From assembly GCA_004375965.1 (NCBI GenBank), contig SOIS01000073.1, forward strand, positions 14,802-78,801: a stretch of DNA of 64,000 nt, in the 5' to 3' direction. This document shows, in pieces, positions 5,944 through 37,814 of the stretch. Source of the DNA: Candidatus Cloacimonadota bacterium (GTDB lineage Bacteria; Hydrothermota; E44-bin80). Each line of letters begins with the position of its first letter. Position 1 is the first letter of the stretch. The position numbers and the translations under genes are program-made. Below the pieces are notes generated by a model that ran no database searches, was not told the DNA's origin, and worked only from the letters and a program-made list of their open reading frames with translations.

Positions 5944-6942
5944 TTACTTAAACCAACCCTCTTTTTTTAATTTATCTATACTATCAGGCTTCTTTCCTTT
6001 GGTAATCCTGTACACCTCTTTAAGTTCTTCTATTTCCTTTTTTTTGTAATTCTCAATATGTCTTGATTCCTGGGTGTAAAGAAGTTGGTTCTTTTTGTAA
6101 AAGGGTCTTTTAATTATCCCAAAGACAATATTTGCTACAAGAAAAAGTATAGCTCCGGTCCATAATAATACATTAATGATAGCCTCTATGGAAATCTTAA
6201 TAGGTTTTCTCTCTTTCCTTCTCGGTTTAGCAACTACTGCAGTTTTTTCAATAACCCCGCCTTCAAGTAAGTTATAAAGGGCATGATATGTTCGAAACCT
6301 ACCAACTCCAGAAGATGCTACAACATCCGCAACACACATCTTCCCATCTATCAATTCAAGCACTACCTTTTCCTGTTCTCCCATTTCTATCGAAAGGCGA
6401 GGTCGTTTTTTTCTCCGAAAGACAATCTTGGAATCAGGGATTGATTTCTTTATTTTTGGCCACTCATCAATCCTCCTCATTCCTTCAATAATCAAGAACT
6501 GCGGGTTTACAAGAACACTGCACTTACTCTTGGAATATAACCGTTCGCCTAACCGAAACTTATACTCTCCTTTTTTCCATGTAAAGAGTTCGTCAACGAT
6601 CTCCTGTATTTTAAACTCTATAATTTTTTCCAGATCCTCTTTTGTCAGAACATTATTTTCTACAAGTTTATCAACAACAGGGATTCCTTTCTTTTTGGAT
6701 TCTCTATCAAACTTCTTTAACTCTTCCTTGGAAATTCTTCCTATGAGAACAAGATAATCACCAATGGGTTTCAATACACCTTTTTTATTATGTGAAGCAG
6801 AAGAGATCATCCCGTTTTCGAAACCGAGTGATATAATCTCTCTCTTGAATTGAAAGACAAGAACACCAGTCTTCCCCTGGGTATTAATTAACTGAAAAAC
6901 ATCAGCTACACCAAAATCCTTTATATTTCCTTCAAATGCCAT
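5944..6942 (-). CDS. DUF4388-like domain protein with C-terminal transmembrane segment
   Basis: N-terminus GNIKDFGVADVFQLINTQGKTGVLVF plus LELIDGKMCVADVV. One hydrophobic helix (ILFLVANIVFGII). Confidence 0.5.
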   Translation of the reverse strand: MAFEGNIKDFGVADVFQLINTQGKTGVLVFQFKREIISLGFENGMISSASHNKKGVLKPIGDYLVLIGRISKEELKKFDRESKKKGIPVVDKLVENNVLTKEDLEKIIEFKIQEIVDELFTWKKGEYKFRLGERLYSKSKCSVLVNPQFLIIEGMRRIDEWPKIKKSIPDSKIVFRRKKRPRLSIEMGEQEKVVLELIDGKMCVADVVASSGVGRFRTYHALYNLLEGGVIEKTAVVAKPRRKERKPIKISIEAIINVLLWTGAILFLVANIVFGIIKRPFYKKNQLLYTQESRHIENYKKKEIEELKEVYRITKGKKPDSIDKLKKEGWFK

Positions 6943-6947
6943 ATATA

Positions 6948-9044
6948 TTACCTCTCTTCGTAATCGCTCCCAAAAAGATTGAGTAAAGAAAAGAGATACA
7001 GTAATATAATAAGGAATGAAGTAATGTATAACCCGAAGTTCATCCCTTTTGGAAAAGGAAGATAGAATGTAATTTTCGTTACTCTATTAATGAACAGCAT
7101 TGAGCATAAAATGGAGAAAATAAGAAGATAGAAAGTACCTGTCTTAATTTTCCCTATTTGAAGATGCCCAAGTCCAGGGAGGAAAAGTCCCCAGAAGATT
7201 GCAGTATAGCGTACTCTCCTTTGGGCATCCATTCTAATCTTATCCCGTAATCTTTCTTGTATATCTACAGAGTGAATAGAGCTCAGTTTTCTGTAACACC
7301 TCCAGCATATAGTTTCGTTTTGAAATATCCGTGAATTTCCTTTTGAGATGGGAGATGAACAGATTGGGCACTGGGTATTTATGCTCTTGGTAACCCGTGG
7401 GACAACAATAAAAATGAAGAAAAAACCTATAAGAAAGGATGAAAAAATTCTATAATCAAATCCGATATATTTCCATGGAAAAATGCTTTTGTCCTCCTCT
7501 AAAGAGGAAAATTCCTTCCAGAGTATTCCCTTGGGTAAAGTAAGATCAATTAGAAAACGGTTGTTTACCTCCTTTGAATTTTTTATCTGTGTAGTGATAA
7601 GATCAAAATTCAATTGTGACGATATTTTCATGTGACGAAAAGATTTATCAAATCGAAGTTTTCTGACATACGCCTGAGCAAGGTTATAATGTGGCTCTGG
7701 TGCCTTTGATTCGTGTGCCTTCGCTAACTCATAATACTTAATTGAACTGTCTATTTCTCCTTTCCAGAACAAAACATTCCCTAAGTTATTGTATGTTTGA
7801 TAAAGATTAGGTGTAATACTTATTGCCTTTCTGTAATTTTTTTCTGCCTCATCAAAGAACCCTCCTCTTTTCAACTGTAGTCCTTTCAGAAAGTATATGG
7901 AGTAATCCCTTTGGGAAATAGTCAATAGACTGTCACATTTCCTTATCCATTTCGATTCAAATCTGGATTTCTGCATACTATCCAGTATCTCAATTTTTTG
8001 AGTCGGATCCATTGCAGTAATGGCTCTGGTCTGGAAACTTCCAAAGAGTGATACGACACATAAAAGTAGAATAAATGATTGAACAACCCATCTTTCGTTC
8101 CTTTTAAGAAAAGGAATTGGAATAATCAACATAAATATAAATGTATATAAAGAAGGGATTGTCCAAATTAACGGAAGAAGCATAAAAGTAACAGATATGA
8201 AGTATCTCATAGATATAGGAAGTTTACGAGGAGTAAAGGTAATTATTTTTGAAACAGCAGAAGGAAAGTACTTTATAAAATAAGCAATAACTAAAGTAGA
8301 TAGAAAGATTGCAAGAAGTGTAAACAACAAATTATAGGAGAAAATAATAACATGTAGCCTTGTTTTAAAGTCGAGGAATATAATATGCACTAAGGATAAT
8401 AATTCATCAAAAAATTCAAATCTTCTATTCAGGAAAAGATATCGGACATAAAAATGTCGGATGCCAAGATTATAAGGATTTAATTCTTTTGAAATTCTAA
8501 CGTTTTTTTCTGTCTCAGTGTCAAAACCGCCCTGAGCAGCTTCTCTTCCTCTAACGAAGAAATATTTGCTGAGAAGAGGTAGCGATAGTGCTCCAAAATC
8601 CTTCTTTAATTCAAGAAACTTTTCTTCTTCCTTCATTTGCCATTTGAGAAGCCTTCTTTGGGAAAAGAGTTCAAGAAGTATAGTGTGTTTGGAAACGTTC
8701 TTTCCTGCCTTTTTAATTGCCATATCATAGTACTTGAATGCTTCCTCATATTTATTCTTGTATCTATAAAGCTCACCAATGCAAAAAGCCAAGAATGGAT
8801 TTTCAGGATGTCTCCGCATCTCATTCCTATATCTCCATCTTATAGAATTAAAATTTAACGAGGGAACATAACCCTTTCCGGAAAGTACTCTGTAAAATTC
8901 AGGGACAAGTCTGAATGCATACTCCTTTTCTTTATATGCAATCTCGTATTCATTCTCATATTGTGAGAATGTTCCCTGAGCAGAAATAAGAGCGGGAGAA
9001 AAAGAGATTAAGAGTAAAACATATGTTATTCCAGACCTAACCAT
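6948..9044 (-). CDS. TPR-repeat membrane protein with zinc-ribbon motif
   Basis: Multiple TPR-like repeats (e.g. YNNLGNVLFWKGEIDSSIKYYELA), several hydrophobic helices, and CPICSS...CWRCYRKL. Confidence 0.55.
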   Translation of the reverse strand: MVRSGITYVLLLISFSPALISAQGTFSQYENEYEIAYKEKEYAFRLVPEFYRVLSGKGYVPSLNFNSIRWRYRNEMRRHPENPFLAFCIGELYRYKNKYEEAFKYYDMAIKKAGKNVSKHTILLELFSQRRLLKWQMKEEEKFLELKKDFGALSLPLLSKYFFVRGREAAQGGFDTETEKNVRISKELNPYNLGIRHFYVRYLFLNRRFEFFDELLSLVHIIFLDFKTRLHVIIFSYNLLFTLLAIFLSTLVIAYFIKYFPSAVSKIITFTPRKLPISMRYFISVTFMLLPLIWTIPSLYTFIFMLIIPIPFLKRNERWVVQSFILLLCVVSLFGSFQTRAITAMDPTQKIEILDSMQKSRFESKWIRKCDSLLTISQRDYSIYFLKGLQLKRGGFFDEAEKNYRKAISITPNLYQTYNNLGNVLFWKGEIDSSIKYYELAKAHESKAPEPHYNLAQAYVRKLRFDKSFRHMKISSQLNFDLITTQIKNSKEVNNRFLIDLTLPKGILWKEFSSLEEDKSIFPWKYIGFDYRIFSSFLIGFFFIFIVVPRVTKSINTQCPICSSPISKGNSRIFQNETICWRCYRKLSSIHSVDIQERLRDKIRMDAQRRVRYTAIFWGLFLPGLGHLQIGKIKTGTFYLLIFSILCSMLFINRVTKITFYLPFPKGMNFGLYITSFLIILLYLFSLLNLFGSDYEER

Positions 9045-19357: not shown

Positions 19358-20011
19358 CTATTTCTTGAGTATTTTTCTGAATTTTGAAAAAGAACGTGCA
19401 GCTTCGAATCCCGTAACATCCCTATCTCTAAAGAAGAAACCATCTTCTAATCTTAAAAATTTATTCGAAATAGCAAAGGTAATCGCTTTATATGTATAAT
19501 CGGAGAGGGGAACATCCTTCATTTCATAATGATACACCTTCTTGCTGTGAAAAAATGGTAGGGTCTTTGAAACCCTATAAAGGATAATTGCGAGTTGAAA
19601 CCTTTTTACATCATCATCCGGATAGAATTTCCCATCTGGAAAATTTCTCATCCACCCAATTTTCAGTGCATCAACAATATACGGCTCTTCATCTAACCCT
19701 ATAATGTCAAAAATTTTACCATTTTCAACAGGATACATATCCGGATTTTCTTCGAAAAAAGGTTGGAGATCATTCAAATAGTAGACCAAAAGAAAAGCTA
19801 TAACCTTTCTTTTTACCCTGTTCTGTGAAAGAATATTTATAAGATGCTCTTTTTCCCAGTCTTTTTTTAACTGGATCAGGGTTGTTGGTTTTGTCTTTCT
19901 TACTGGCACACACCCTACTGTGCAAATAAGAAAAAAAACAATTAACCCCGTTAGAGACCTCGTCAAAAAGGACAAAACATTCTTTAGAAATATCTTAATA
20001 CATCTTTTCAT
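19358..20011 (-). CDS. hypothetical lipoprotein, possible SLH-like C-terminal region
   Basis: Signal peptide plus Cys (LICTVGC). C-terminal FPDGKFYPDDDVKRFQLAIILYRV and GFFFRDRDVTGFEAARSFSKF are reminiscent of SLH repeats. Confidence 0.35.
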   Translation of the reverse strand: MKRCIKIFLKNVLSFLTRSLTGLIVFFLICTVGCVPVRKTKPTTLIQLKKDWEKEHLINILSQNRVKRKVIAFLLVYYLNDLQPFFEENPDMYPVENGKIFDIIGLDEEPYIVDALKIGWMRNFPDGKFYPDDDVKRFQLAIILYRVSKTLPFFHSKKVYHYEMKDVPLSDYTYKAITFAISNKFLRLEDGFFFRDRDVTGFEAARSFSKFRKILKK

Positions 20012-20050
20012 TGCTGCCCTGAAGGTCGACGAATTCTCTAACGGGGTTAA
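19943..20050. repeat. 15-bp perfect inverted repeat pair TTAACCCCGTTAGAG / CTCTAACGGGGTTAA with 78-nt spacer
   Basis: Arms at 19943-19957 and 20036-20050 flank the start codon and first codons of the lipoprotein gene 19358..20011. Confidence 0.65.
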
Positions 20051-20081: not shown

Positions 20082-21005
20082 CTAATACGTTAATGTATCC
20101 CTTATTATGTAAGAGATTGGATTTACTGGTCTATTTAGTATTCTAACCTCATAATGAAGGTGTGTCCCTGTTGCTAAACCGGTTCTTCCCATTGTTGCAA
20201 TGAGGTCACCTCTTTTCGCTTCTTGACCTTCCTTGACAAATATCCTTTGGAGATGTCCGTATTTCGTCTTGAATCCATAACCATGATCAATGGATAAATA
20301 ATTCCCGAATCCTGCCTGCCTGCCTACAAAATCAACTACTCCATCTGCAGTGGCATAAATATGCGTTCCAGGAAGACTTGCAATGTCTAAACCTGTATGG
20401 AAGTGAATAACCCTCCTTATGGGATGTCTTCGATAGCCAAAACCAGAAGAGATGTAACCACTGGTGGGCCAAATGGATGGAGTATGTCGTTTAAGGTCAA
20501 TAATAGATGTAAGCTTTCTGTAAACCTCTTCGTAGGATGTTTGCTCCAGATCAACAAGTTTTTCAGCAAAGTTTACCTCTTTTACTAAATCACTAACTAT
20601 TTTATATGAAGATTTAGAGAGTTTTCCTTTTAATGTATCAAGTGCTGATGGACCACCTATACCCATTATCCTTAATTTCCTTTCCAGAGGAGATACATCA
20701 GTTGCATATCTCAATTTGTCATTAAAAGCTGAATATAAATCTATCTTCTTTTTAAGGGATTTATTTTCTTCATCTATCATTTTAAGGGAAGCAATATAAC
20801 GTTCCTTGACTGTTACCTGATTCCTAAATTCAGAAAATAAAGAGCGTTTATTTATCCCTCTAATTGATAGTAATGAAGAGCATAAGAACAAAAAAGCAAT
20901 AAGTGAAAGCAGTACAAAGAGATAAGTGTCTTTGAAGATAAACTGATAAATACCCTTTTCTGTTATAATACTAAGTGTCCAACTGAATCTCCTCACTCTT
21001 CTCAT
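20082..21005 (-). CDS. M23 family metallopeptidase
   Basis: HTGLDIA...GTHIYATADGVV...GFGNYLSIDHGYG...THLHYEV. Confidence 0.8.
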   Translation of the reverse strand: MRRVRRFSWTLSIITEKGIYQFIFKDTYLFVLLSLIAFLFLCSSLLSIRGINKRSLFSEFRNQVTVKERYIASLKMIDEENKSLKKKIDLYSAFNDKLRYATDVSPLERKLRIMGIGGPSALDTLKGKLSKSSYKIVSDLVKEVNFAEKLVDLEQTSYEEVYRKLTSIIDLKRHTPSIWPTSGYISSGFGYRRHPIRRVIHFHTGLDIASLPGTHIYATADGVVDFVGRQAGFGNYLSIDHGYGFKTKYGHLQRIFVKEGQEAKRGDLIATMGRTGLATGTHLHYEVRILNRPVNPISYIIRDTLTY

Positions 21006-23319: not shown

Positions 23320-23321
23320 AA

Positions 23322-23349
23322 GTAAGGGCGTTCAATTGAACGCCCCTAC
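23322..23349. repeat. GC-rich palindromic hairpin element, copy 1 (GTAAGGGCGTTCAATTGAACGCCCCTAC)
   Basis: 28-nt palindrome (one mismatch) centred on CAATTG, between purA stop and the GT4 start. Minus-strand transcript continues UUACUUUUGCUGUUU. Confidence 0.7.
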
Positions 23350-23368
23350 TAACTCGTTTGATGGATAA

Positions 23369-25592: not shown

Positions 25593-25622
25593 CCCCGTTA
25601 GACAATTTCATATCTAACGGGG
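25593..25622. repeat. hairpin CCCCGTTAG-(12 nt)-CTAACGGGG, same family as 19943/33021
   Basis: Shares the CCCCGTTAGA arm with the 19943 repeat. Intergenic, upstream of the zinc-ribbon gene 25724. Confidence 0.55.
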
Positions 25623-31329: not shown

Positions 31330-31451
31330 CCAGCTAACCTCCTTCTATATTTGTATCCAAATCTATATCTTTTCTTAATTAAACCATTTTCATTACATTG
31401 TCAAGGGAAAATCGTTGAAACAACATTGTAGGGGCAAAGGTTGCCCCTACA

Positions 31452-32471
31452 TTATTTTTTGCTCCTACGCAACTTTGCTATTGCCTTGTAGTGTTCCTTT
31501 GCAGTCCTTGAAAATATGTGTGAGCCATCTCCCTTCGCAACATAATAAAGAAAATCTGTATCTGCTGGATAGAGTGCTGCAATAATTGCTGATTTACCTG
31601 GACTGGCTATTGGTCCTGGAGGTAGACCTTTATGAATATATGTATTATAAGGTGATTTTACTTTCAGATCCTTGTAAAGAAGTCTCGATTTATGTTTCGG
31701 AAGTGCAAACTGAACTGTAGCATCACATTCAAGTGCCCTATCCAGTTTAAGTCTTTTATGATAGACCTGTGAAACAATAGGGTTCTCCTTTTCTATCATT
31801 GTCTCCTCTTCTATCATTGATGCAAGTGTAACAACTTCATAAACTGTAAAACCTATTTCTTCGGCCCGTTTCTTTAAGGAATCGTTAAAAACCTTCCAGA
31901 ACTCTCTGACGAATCTTTCAATCACTTCTTTCTCAGTAACTCCATAGTTAAATTCATAGGTATTCGGGTAAAGGAATCCCTCAAAGTTCTTCCCAGTGAT
32001 ACCCATTCTCGCTGCATATTTTTTGTCGTTTGCAAGTTTAAGGAATTTTTTCCTATCAATCTTGAGTTTACTCTCTAAGATTTCTGCAACCTCTTTTAGT
32101 CTTAATCCTTCAGGAATAGCTGCTGACAATGCAATTGTTTCTCCCTTTACCAATGTTTTCAAAACCTGACGTACACTCATTCCTTTATGAAATAGATATC
32201 TTCCCGCCTTTATATTTTTCTCTTCGCCAGTTATCTTTGTATGAAAAACAAACCGTTTTGCAGATGTAATAACTTCTTCTTCTTCCAGCATCTTTCCAAT
32301 CTTCTGCGCAGATGCTCCATCAGGAATTTCGACTATTACCTCTTCTTTAGGGGGCTTCTTTTTAGAACCCAAAAAAACAACGATATTATAACAAATCCCT
32401 GCAATGGATACAGCAATTAAGAAAATTATGAATACTTTAGGTATCCTTTTTATTCTTATTCTCATTCTCAA
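31452..32471 (-). CDS. mltG: endolytic murein transglycosylase MltG (YceG family)
   Basis: N-terminal TM, then GRYLF..GMS....L and LASMIEEET motifs of YceG. Confidence 0.8.
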   Translation of the reverse strand: MRMRIRIKRIPKVFIIFLIAVSIAGICYNIVVFLGSKKKPPKEEVIVEIPDGASAQKIGKMLEEEEVITSAKRFVFHTKITGEEKNIKAGRYLFHKGMSVRQVLKTLVKGETIALSAAIPEGLRLKEVAEILESKLKIDRKKFLKLANDKKYAARMGITGKNFEGFLYPNTYEFNYGVTEKEVIERFVREFWKVFNDSLKKRAEEIGFTVYEVVTLASMIEEETMIEKENPIVSQVYHKRLKLDRALECDATVQFALPKHKSRLLYKDLKVKSPYNTYIHKGLPPGPIASPGKSAIIAALYPADTDFLYYVAKGDGSHIFSRTAKEHYKAIAKLRRSKK

Positions 32472-32499
32472 CTACTTTCCACTTTAAGGTAAAGAAGTG

Positions 32500-32922
32500 T
32501 CATTCTTTCTCTCCTAAACTATCAAGGTAGGATTGTAAAATCAAAGATGCAGCAATTCTGTCAACCCTTTCTTTTTCCCTACTTGGTTTCCTATTCATAT
32601 CCTTCATAATTCGCTCTGCCTCCACGGTTGAATATCTCTCATCCCATAGTGTTATCTCAATATTAAATTTTCCCTTAATTTTTTTTGCAAATTTTTCTAC
32701 CTGCTCTGCCCTTTTCCCCTTTTTCCCGTTTGTTCTTAACGGATAACCGATGACAATATGCTTTAGTGGAAACCGTTCCAAAATTTTGTTAATACCTTCC
32801 TCTATTTTCTTCCTCTCAATGGTTTCAAGTGGCATAGCAATCATGCATAACGGATCGCTGATTGCTATGCCAACTCGTTTCTCTCCAAAATCAATTCCAA
32901 GAATTCGTTCTTCTTCTTTCAT
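32500..32922 (-). CDS. ruvX: Holliday junction resolvase-like protein RuvX/YqgF
   Basis: ILGIDFGEKRVGIAISDP N-terminus. 140 aa. Confidence 0.85.
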   Translation of the reverse strand: MKEEERILGIDFGEKRVGIAISDPLCMIAMPLETIERKKIEEGINKILERFPLKHIVIGYPLRTNGKKGKRAEQVEKFAKKIKGKFNIEITLWDERYSTVEAERIMKDMNRKPSREKERVDRIAASLILQSYLDSLGEKE

Positions 32923-32982
32923 ACTTCTTTATCTTTTCAAATGTCTTGTAGTCGCATGCTTCAGTCCGTATGTTTTTTTAAT

Positions 32983-33066
32983 GGTAGCCGCAGGCTTTTG
33001 CCTGCGTATTTTTACACACCTTAACCCCGTAAATGGCATTTTACGGGGTTAAAAGGTGCGGCTACC
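32983..33066 (-). other. structured intergenic element (nested hairpins, three-way-junction-like) between cdd and ruvX
   Basis: Outer stem GGTAGCCGC/GCGGCTACC encloses hairpin AGGC-TTTT-GCCT (extendable to CGCAGGC/GCCTGCG) and hairpin TTAACCCCGTAAA-tggcat-TTTACGGGGTTAA. It overlaps the cdd stop codon. Confidence 0.5.
33021..33052. repeat. hairpin TTAACCCCGTAAA-tggcat-TTTACGGGGTTAA, same family
   Basis: Shares the TTAACCCCGT arm with the 19943 repeat. Part of the cdd-ruvX structured element. Confidence 0.55.
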
Positions 33067-33475
33067 TTATCCTTTTATCCTTTTTCCTTTTTCCTTGAAG
33101 CTCGAATCCCTCGGGCAATAACTCCTTCAAGGAATAACTCTTTATTCTATTGTTTTGAAGCGTAATGATGGTAATATCGGGAGCAAACTCAAACAGCACC
33201 TGTCTGCAAGCACCGCATGGAAGGACTGAGGTGTTTTCCTGACCAACAACTGCAAGTTTCAAAAAGTCCCTTTCCCCTTCTGAAACCGCCTTGAAAAGAG
33301 CCACCCTCTCGGCACAGCAGGTTAACCCAAAAGAACTGTTTTCTACATTACACCCTGTGTAAACTGCTCCACTCTTTGTAAGTATTGCAGCACCTACTGA
33401 AAATTTTGAATAAGGAGTATATGCATACTTCCATGCTTCTTTTGCCTTATCTAATAATTCTCTATCTGTCATCAT
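33062..33475 (-). CDS. cdd: cytidine deaminase
   Basis: CAERVALFKAV...PCGACRQVLFEF zinc-binding motifs. 137 aa. Confidence 0.85.
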   Translation of the reverse strand: MMTDRELLDKAKEAWKYAYTPYSKFSVGAAILTKSGAVYTGCNVENSSFGLTCCAERVALFKAVSEGERDFLKLAVVGQENTSVLPCGACRQVLFEFAPDITIITLQNNRIKSYSLKELLPEGFELQGKRKKDKRIR

Positions 33476-33724
33476 TTTATAATCTCAATCTTAAATCCAC
33501 ATAGGATAAACACCTCGTAATTGTGTGGAGAAGGGCGTCATTGCGAGTTCTCCTTCTTACTTGACCCATGCAAAGCAATCTCATATTCTCAGTCATTATC
33601 TTTTTAGTCTTTCCTTTATCCTGTCCATAGCTCATCGAAGGACTTTTTTTATTGTTTTTTTGTCTTCTCCTTACTGCATACTCCTTACTCACAACTATCC
33701 TTATCCTGTCAACTGAAAGAGAAG

Positions 33725-37786: not shown

Positions 37787-37814
37787 GTAGGGGCGTTCAA
37801 TTGAACGCCCCTAC
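37787..37814. repeat. GC-rich palindromic hairpin element, copy 2 (GTAGGGGCGTTCAATTGAACGCCCCTAC)
   Basis: Perfect 28-nt palindrome, near-identical to copy 1, between the small secreted protein gene and the CN-hydrolase gene. Confidence 0.7.

Follow-up and report, generated by a model that had tools for sequence, protein, structure and literature searches.

What does an elaborate nested-hairpin structure do in the spacer between two genes of a bacterial operon? The question is raised by positions 32983-33066 of a 64-kb window, by which we mean the whole 64,000-nt stretch analyzed here, from contig SOIS01000073.1 of a Candidatus Cloacimonadota bacterium. The structure lies between cdd (33062-33475, minus strand) and ruvX (32500-32922, minus strand), which are separated by a 139-nt spacer. 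A YceG/MltG-like gene (31452-32471, minus strand) follows downstream in the cdd-ruvX-mltG operon. The initial annotation of the window had proposed three readings: an RNA processing or stability element, a small structured non-coding RNA, or a composite of two dispersed repeat elements. The nested hairpins are very probably the last of these, two layers of selfish repeat DNA consisting of an inverted dimer of repetitive extragenic palindromic (REP) units and a mini-transposon inserted in it, with no dedicated regulatory RNA.

The structure is real and far beyond what chance would produce, and its parts are as first described. A 9-bp closing stem is formed by GGTAGCCGC (32983-32991) and GCGGCTACC (33058-33066). 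It overlaps the cdd stop codon, as the TAG at 33062-33064 falls within the GGTAGC of the stem. Enclosed in it are a GC hairpin with a 4-nt loop, CGCAGGC-TTTT-GCCTGCG (32989-33006), and an AT-rich hairpin with a 6-nt loop and perfect 13-bp arms, TTAACCCCGTAAA and TTTACGGGGTTAA (33021-33033 and 33040-33052). Because the GC hairpin and the closing stem have three bases in common, the closing stem is 6-7 bp long in the predicted fold. A 131-nt segment folds at -50.1 kcal/mol on the minus strand (z -6.3) and at -50.3 kcal/mol on the plus strand (z -7.5), with none of 200 shuffles folding as well in either case, and both predicted folds have two hairpins enclosed by the closing stem. No U tract lies 3' of the structure on the mRNA (minus) strand, where the sequence, ATTAAAAAAAC, is A-rich; with the U tract absent, this is not a simple terminator on that strand. 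A scan of the window for tRNA and tmRNA genes found none.

We compared the orthologous cdd-ruvX spacers. The nearest Cdd relatives are encoded in metagenome-assembled genomes (MAGs) labelled Candidatus Cloacimonadota or candidate division WOR-3; L-numbers below denote the loci and contigs compared with the window. The gene order Big_5 protein-cdd-ruvX-yceG is conserved among these relatives but the spacer is not. It measures 0 nt in L061 (Cdd 70% identical), 49 nt in L058 (76% identical) and 350 nt, of unrelated sequence, in L060 (67% identical), and beyond a narrow clade, in these three loci, the structure is absent. Since alignable spacers occur in close relatives only, the element is not a conserved feature of the cdd-ruvX operon. 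Even among close relatives it is present in some strains and missing in others. The same 135-aa Cdd is encoded in L185, with the full element, and in L187-L190, from four different sequencing runs, in which only GGTAGCCGC is kept and the next 118 nt (window 32940-33057) are gone. A permissive-threshold search of 32400-33600 against Rfam 15 gave chance-level hits only, none of them a match to the element at E up to 10, and the nearest overlap was a chance-level IMES-5 hit of 17.4 bits against a gathering score of 96.1. With no Rfam match, absence from the deeper orthologous spacers and deletion beside an identical Cdd, RNA processing or stability is not borne out as the reason for the structure. 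Nor is a small structured RNA, which Rfam also fails to recognize and without which spacers of 0, 49 and 350 nt exist.

Some assemblies of this region deserve separate mention. The ENA scaffold L186, from the sample of L002, has the deletion allele followed by a run of N and then the ruvX start repeated; it looks as if assembly of this one sample had run together alleles that carry the element and alleles that lack it. The sequence of L001, too, stops within the REP unit. Upstream of cdd, at about 33500-33690, the window has an insertion of about 170 nt relative to L003 and L004, with ATGAGATTGCTT...ACTCGCAATGAC, and L058 has a related stretch as its cdd-ruvX spacer. In L003-L005 the place of this insertion is taken by a REP unit. 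A 71-aa open reading frame (ORF; 33477-33692, minus strand), which corresponds to a 73-aa gene without Pfam hits in relatives, spans the insertion and is probably spurious.

The string GGTAGCCGCAGGCTTTAGCCTGCG of the element also occurs upstream of cdd in L003-L005, in reversed orientation relative to the gene, and this second copy made the string of REP unit A a candidate dispersed repeat. We scanned metagenomes with the pattern GGTAGCCGCAGGC-N(3-8)-GCCTGCG. It was found in at least 120 metagenome contigs with at least 132 matches, the contigs ranging from 30 to 74% GC among the matches listed, and the form of the unit seen in at least 120 contigs is GGTAGCCGCAGGC-N4-GCCTGCG. About half of the units (62-66 of 130, among the matches listed) have an inverted partner 5-54 nt away. 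The partners follow the consensus CGCA-NN-C TAAA G-NN-TGCG GCTAC(C), and their stem positions 5 and 6 co-vary among the metagenome dimers (AU, CG or GC). Identical dimers with identical spacers recur on different contigs (L075, L086, L092, L141, L163, L173). Our searches of the literature for the unit GGTAGCCGCAGGC-TTTA-GCCTGCG did not find it; the sole hit was an unrelated DNAzyme paper.

The window element, a composite at 32983-33066, has the same organization, that of an inverted dimer with its GTAG heads outside. REP unit A (32983-33006, plus strand) has a GGTAGC head, a 7-bp stem CGCAGGC, the loop TTTT and the returning stem GCCTGCG. Its head is the ruvX-proximal end, and the unit is antisense to the mRNA. 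An 8-nt linker, TATTTTTA (33007-33014), within the 5-54 nt that part the partners in metagenome dimers, leads to REP unit B (33015-33066, minus strand), the uninterrupted form of which conforms to the partner consensus. Unit B has its head GGTAGC at 33066-33061, the stem CGCACCT at 33060-33054, an interrupted TTTA loop and the stem AGGTGTG at 33021-33015. GGTAGC begins both units, at 32983-32988 on the plus strand and 33066-33061 on the minus strand, and each of them has a 7-bp stem and a 4-nt loop. Inverted units with a short spacer, recurring on many contigs, are what is called a REP dimer, a REPIN (REP doublet forming a hairpin) or a BIME (bacterial interspersed mosaic element). By the ORF coordinates and the sequence, the cdd stop TAG (33062-33064, minus strand) comes from the GTAG head of unit B.

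A covariance model was built from 14 dimers on unrelated metagenome contigs. In their alignment the GGTAGC head is invariant, 96.8% of cells pair and two positions are changed on both sides. Searched against the 64-kb window, the model gave a single match. This match (54.8 bits, E 3e-13) takes in the entire model, coincides with 32983-33066 and has 29 nt inserted into the loop of hairpin 2. The model also matched the orthologous spacers of L184, L185, L002, L193, L191 and L192, more weakly L001, which is cut by a contig end, and L003-L005; L058-L061, L187 and L188 gave no match. Without its insert the window element adopts the fold of two unrelated heterodimers, L180 and L085, with a closing stem and two hairpins, and the homodimer L114 folds as one long hairpin. 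As the stems of the two units differ, each folds on itself while the complementary heads pair, which gives the look of a three-way junction. The three-way-junction appearance is thus the generic geometry of a REP heterodimer.

Among dimers of the family (L075, L086, L092, L141, L163 and L173; also L064, L129, L137, L138, L162 and L164), some recur with identical spacers and have extended conserved flanks, for example GAGACTGTGTCGTAATCCCATTTTGAT upstream, and others are embedded in an inverted repeat of greater length, ATACCGAGTTGCAATCAAAAAG...TTGACTGCGAAGTGGTAT, which points to larger composite repeats with the REP dimer at their core.

The family is associated with a transposase. Clustering the ORFs of contigs that bear REP units returned a family of 158-171-aa proteins. 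In L100 and L128 ORFs of the REP-associated tyrosine transposase (RAYT) type lie between two inverted units with their heads outward, and in L134, L158 and L165 units or dimers flank a member of the same protein family. All five proteins match Pfam Y1_Tnp and have an HUH-like DHxH motif. They also all match NCBIfam NF047646 (REP-associated tyrosine transposase), for which the curated cut-off is 80; three score above it (95.1, 87.6 and 87.2) and two below (73.9 and 64.9). Homologues in the databases carry the name RayT or REP-associated tyrosine transposase and come from Desulfobaccales, Nitrospirota, WOR-3 and other MAGs. For the family, on these five contigs, the units thus flank a RAYT gene in inverted orientation. 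The head, the dimers and the flanked Y1 genes are defining features of GTAG-type REPs and RAYTs, and the window element accordingly belongs to such a family. In the survey of Di Nocera et al. (PMC3733652), GTAG termini outside is the commonest arrangement of REP dimers, spacers are mostly 20-100 bp with some down to 1-5 bp, and partners fold separately or as one long hairpin. The recombinant Escherichia coli RAYT cuts single-stranded REP DNA at the GTAG motif (PMC3733652). Our definitions of REPs and RAYTs also draw on PMC2817692 and PMC3116915.

The AT-rich hairpin is the second layer. At its center is a 24-bp palindrome of the form CCCCGT...ACGGGG, CCCCGTAAATGGCATTTTACGGGG (33025-33048), with TTAA duplicated on its left (33021-33024) and right (33049-33052). 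It is this palindrome that the covariance model sets apart as the insertion of 29 nt. It consists of inverted ends with nothing between them, like a very small miniature inverted-repeat transposable element (MITE). Its ends, CCCCGTAAA and TTTACGGGG, are perfect inverted repeats over 9 nt, and over 13 nt with the TTAA. Close relatives provide both states of the site. On the mRNA strand the empty sites read GTAGC-CGCACCT-TTTA-AGGTGCG, an intact REP unit with a single TTAA (L002, L191, L192 and L193, at the same place as unit B), and the filled sites read CGCACCTTTTAA[CCCCGTAAAATGCCATTTACGGGGTTAA]GGTG(T/C)G with two (the window, L001, L184 and L185). The difference is all-or-none, 28 nt bounded by TTAA that comprise the palindrome and the second TTAA, and the insertion point is the loop and closing pair of the unit B hairpin. 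Both layers are polymorphic among close relatives. The annotators' third reading, the composite of two dispersed repeats, is upheld with each repeat assigned: the outer stem and the GC hairpin are the REP dimer, and the AT-rich hairpin is the inserted mini-palindrome.

Elements with the same outer ends occur elsewhere. A second one in the window, TTAA-CCCCGTTAGAG...CTCTAACGGGG-TTAA (19942-20050), has a 101-bp core and lies between the ORFs 19358-20011 (minus strand) and 20082-21005 (minus strand). The listed ATG of the downstream ORF is inside it, so the start of that ORF is probably wrong. The third is a 30-bp palindrome, CCCCGTTAGACA...ATCTAACGGGG (25593-25622; full sequence CCCCGTTAGACAATTTCATATCTAACGGGG), flanked by CTTG and TGAA, where a target duplication is either absent or decayed. 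We scanned genomes with the pattern TTAACCCCGTWA-N(2-32)-TWACGGGGTTAA, which imposes the TTAA, and obtained 52 loci, among them loci of Patescibacteria, Omnitrophota, Planctomycetota, Nitrospirota, Bacteroidota and Proteobacteria; on a rough estimate with uniform base composition, fewer than one match is expected by chance. Their consensus is CCCCGTTAGA... Because the scan had imposed TTAA, other copies in the fetched loci were checked for their flanking 4-mers. Identical flanking 4-mers were found for 14 of 36 candidate end pairs not flanked by TTAA (about 0.14 expected), and identical 5-mers for none of 47. The duplicated 4-mers are non-palindromic (TGAG, TTTA, TAAA, TGAA, TCAA, TTCA, CAAG and CGGG), and some same-ended copies are nested inside one another. 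Such a pattern is the hallmark of insertion, whether cut-and-paste or copy-and-paste, that duplicates 4 bp of target. In this putative family of tiny elements the ends are CCCCGT(TAGA/AAA)..., the 4-bp duplication is exact, TTAA is a frequent target and sizes run from 24 to about 270 bp.

The source of mobility was sought in several ways. Ends paired 300-4000 bp apart turned out to be just combinations of separate small copies, and no pair at the distance of an insertion sequence had a matching duplication. All-against-all clustering of the ORFs near the 52 genome copies gave no recurrent transposase, the sole recurrent neighbor being an AAA_14+DUF4143 ATPase in Bacteroidota. A BLAST search of plasmids with the consensus end produced chance matches only, and a scan of viral contigs produced nothing. 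That the inner palindrome belongs to an undescribed, cross-phyla family of tiny inverted-repeat elements, perhaps moved by a transposase of the IS1380 or piggyBac type, is a proposal we hold tentatively; taken jointly with horizontal spread of the REP/RAYT family, we would place it on the doubtful side of even.

Copies of related palindromes have features of their own. The Wildermuthbacteria MAG JACQMR01 has a 38-nt palindrome, TTAACCCCGTTAAG-loop-CTTAACGGGGTTAA, in eleven copies (L008, L014, L018, L021, L022, L024, L037, L040, L051 and L052). The loop is GTTATCCACACC, in either orientation, and in most copies contains TTATCCACA, the consensus of the DnaA box; ATCC...GGAT flanks most of these palindromes. 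In Bacteroidota, 45-nt palindromes starting TTAACCCCGTAAAATG/AAATTT adjoin AAA_14 + DUF4143 ATPase genes (L038, L044, L046 and L049), and L046 has one on each side of the gene (6655-6699 and 7904-7948). Three of these four loci are orthologous and represent, with the fourth, about two independent cases. Literature matches to CCCCGTTAGA were primers and synthetic oligonucleotides and were set aside; a paper on a 77-bp inverted repeat of Porphyromonas gingivalis matched via an engineered bulge oligonucleotide only.

The observations above have to be weighed against readings in which the operon, rather than mobile DNA, accounts for the structure. A dedicated cis-acting RNA element under selection, whether a processing site, a stabilizer of the cdd 3' end or an attenuator uncoupling ruvX, would fit a very stable fold that lies inside an operon, would be transcribed and starts exactly at the cdd stop codon. 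REP-containing mRNAs are moreover known substrates of, or barriers to, RNase R and PNPase (PMC12320835), and are degraded by RNase R with PNPase (PMC12320835). The same sequence, however, recurs in more than a hundred unrelated contexts and borders transposase genes. It is absent beyond the narrow clade, where one orthologue has cdd abutting ruvX, and four strains that were assembled independently and share an identical Cdd have lost it; point mutations erode its units in relatives, and no Rfam family describes it. We consider this explanation quite unlikely. An intrinsic and possibly bidirectional terminator between cdd and ruvX is highly improbable, even though a plus-strand scan flags CGCAGGCTTTTGCCTGCG followed by TATTTTTACA as terminator-like. 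That T run is the linker of the dimer, and it lies on the plus strand, antisense to both genes, where no plus-strand gene enters. On the mRNA strand the hairpins are followed by the A-rich tract AUUAAAAAAAC rather than by a U tract. Inspection of the sequence also led us to reject an integron attC site, as the sequence does not match R''/R' core sites and no integron context surrounds it.

For the inner layer the alternative is that the AT-rich palindrome is not mobile and instead binds a protein or forms a cruciform, or that the REP loop expanded locally into a palindrome. The all-or-none allele difference of 28 nt bounded by TTAA, an inserted sequence with no local source, and same-ended elements with non-palindromic 4-bp duplications, some of them nested, argue for insertion. 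On the other side, the palindrome extends past TTAA in several genomes (for example ATCC-TTAA...TTAA-GGAT in a Wildermuthbacteria MAG), some copies hold a conserved position beside the same gene in related Bacteroidota, and no transposase was found. On balance an immobile palindrome is unlikely.

Several points weigh against the reading of the element as a REP dimer with an inserted mini-transposon. There is only one dimer in 64 kb (unit A also occurs once, with 3-6 units on some metagenome contigs, and a strict pattern search for palindromes of GTAG-stem shape added no other case in the window), and the window thus gives no sign of a high copy number in the genome. A tblastn search with the five RAYTs gave no significant match in the 64-kb window or the related loci. 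Heads or stems are mutated in some relatives (the head in L185, the second unit in L191 and L192; L003 too), and the element may be a relic; with the deletions beside an identical Cdd, these disabling substitutions leave it under no visible constraint. An acquired function, as a secondary effect on the operon mRNA, is also possible. As regards the inner palindrome, TTAA is itself palindromic, so at this site a duplication and an extended inverted repeat are told apart only through the empty alleles. The window palindrome has just TTAACCCCGT in common with the main CCCCGTTAGA family. Its overlap with a Bacteroidota subfamily of 45-nt palindromes, the duplications of which are examinable for TTAA only, is 16 nt (TTAACCCCGTAAAATG). 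As the ends of the window copy are CCCCGTAAA and not CCCCGTTAGA, it is assigned to the larger family by its first ten bases and the TTAA. Finally, no autonomous CCCCGT... element was found in about 1.1 Mb of fetched loci.

A history in two steps of insertion would account for the locus. An HH heterodimer, in the terms of Di Nocera et al. (compare REPIN and BIME), would have entered the cdd-ruvX junction in an ancestor of a narrow Cloacimonadota-like clade. Units of this family are recognized by a RAYT whose gene lies at another site in the genome. By analogy with known systems, the enzyme would cleave and transfer them in the form of single-stranded hairpins, and such a RAYT presumably mobilized this particular copy. 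Later, in one sub-lineage, the 24-bp CCCCGTAAA... palindrome would have inserted at the TTAA of the loop and duplicated it, lengthening the hairpin to 13 bp or more; the palindrome was probably moved in trans by a DDE-type transposase.

Once transcribed, the structure may act at most as a barrier to 3' exonucleases or as a brake on translation termination, a likely by-product and not its purpose. Its position, starting right at the cdd stop codon, means that it may disturb translation termination there. E. coli REPs reportedly stabilize upstream mRNA (Newbury et al. in 1987), and REPs within about 15 nt of a stop codon reportedly reduce expression because ribosomes stall and trans-translation sets in (Liang, Rudd and Deutscher in 2015).

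REP/RAYT systems, REP dimers and MITEs are already known. Like GTAG-tagged REPs and their dimers with RAYT/TnpA-REP (BIMEs of E. coli, SMAG of Stenotrophomonas, REPINs of Pseudomonas), the present units have GTAG at one end of a GC-rich palindrome of about 24 nt. They also often occur as inverted dimers in which the GTAG ends face outward and the spacer is tens of bases long. Partners whose stems differ fold separately, and inverted units flank one small Y1/HUH transposase gene. Unlike those families, which are mostly genus- or species-specific, this unit is found near letter for letter on contigs of 30-74% GC, with RAYTs named from several phyla. Its density also differs from classical REP-rich genomes, as we see one dimer per 64 kb and no RAYT here. 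IS1397 and ISKpn1 of enterobacteria are insertion sequences that target REP hairpins. In Pseudomonas putida, ISPpu9 is likewise a second mobile element within a REP, its copies being inserted into REP sequences (PMC8450116); here the site is the loop and closing pair of unit B. Unlike ISPpu9, our insert is just 24 bp plus the duplicated TTAA, without coding capacity.

The inserted family resembles MITEs in its terminal inverted repeats, exact 4-bp duplication and lack of coding capacity, and in having many copies in some hosts, nested copies and presence/absence between close strains. It differs from MITEs (typically about 100-400 bp) in members as small as 24-30 bp, in having no identified autonomous parent and in sharing the same 10-nt ends between very distant phyla. 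A TTAA target and CCC... termini are features of piggyBac-type ends. The present family likewise prefers TTAA and has ends that begin with CCCC, and CCCCGTTAGAAAG resembles such an end, CCCTAGAAAG. Unlike piggyBac-type elements, many copies use target 4-mers other than TTAA. Bacterial IS1380-family elements have ends beginning CC and 4-5-bp duplications.

Elsewhere at the locus, the C-terminal tail of Cdd (33067-33100) is encoded by purine-rich short repeats (AAGGAAAAAGGAAAAAGGATAAAAGGATAAGG). In the calls for close relatives, changes of one base in the length of an A run move the stop between an upstream TAA and the REP TAG, and the Cdd proteins, with their differing tails, are 128-137 aa long. 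An exact look-up of the window Cdd found it not on record, and the same was true of protein P0242. Palindromes of the form GTAGGGGC...GCCCCTAC stand just after gene ends at 23321-23350, 31427-31451 and 37787-37814 and are terminator-like. Two of the three are identical, GTAGGGGCGTTCAATTGAACGCCCCTAC, and GTAGGGGC is observed 5 times where 0.47 occurrences are expected. These palindromes may act as bidirectional terminators or make up a second family of repeats with GTAG heads.

What is new here is a near-identical REP unit across very different genomes, a 24-bp element in a REP loop, and a parentless CCCCGT... family with 4-bp duplications. The tiny CCCCGT... elements are a lead to a possibly unrecognized transposon family, and if copies of 24-30 bp retain their mobility, transposition would need no more than about 10-12 bp at each end. 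A cdd stop codon taken from a REP head is a small example of repeats reshaping protein C-termini. The locus also offers a natural allele series at one site (the intact REP dimer, the dimer with the mini-insertion, and a 118-nt deletion) with which effects on operon expression could be measured. Nested selfish repeats can, purely through their geometry, give an operon spacer an elaborate three-way-junction fold, which warns against calling riboregulators from such folds. The analysis documents a REP/RAYT family in uncultured lineages, in MAGs labelled Cloacimonadota or WOR-3 with related RAYTs from Desulfobaccales and Nitrospirota MAGs, where to our knowledge REPs have hardly been described. 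If the unit is truly near-identical across very different genomes, this would mean horizontal spread of REPs and RAYTs, as opposed to the mostly vertical picture from Pseudomonas.

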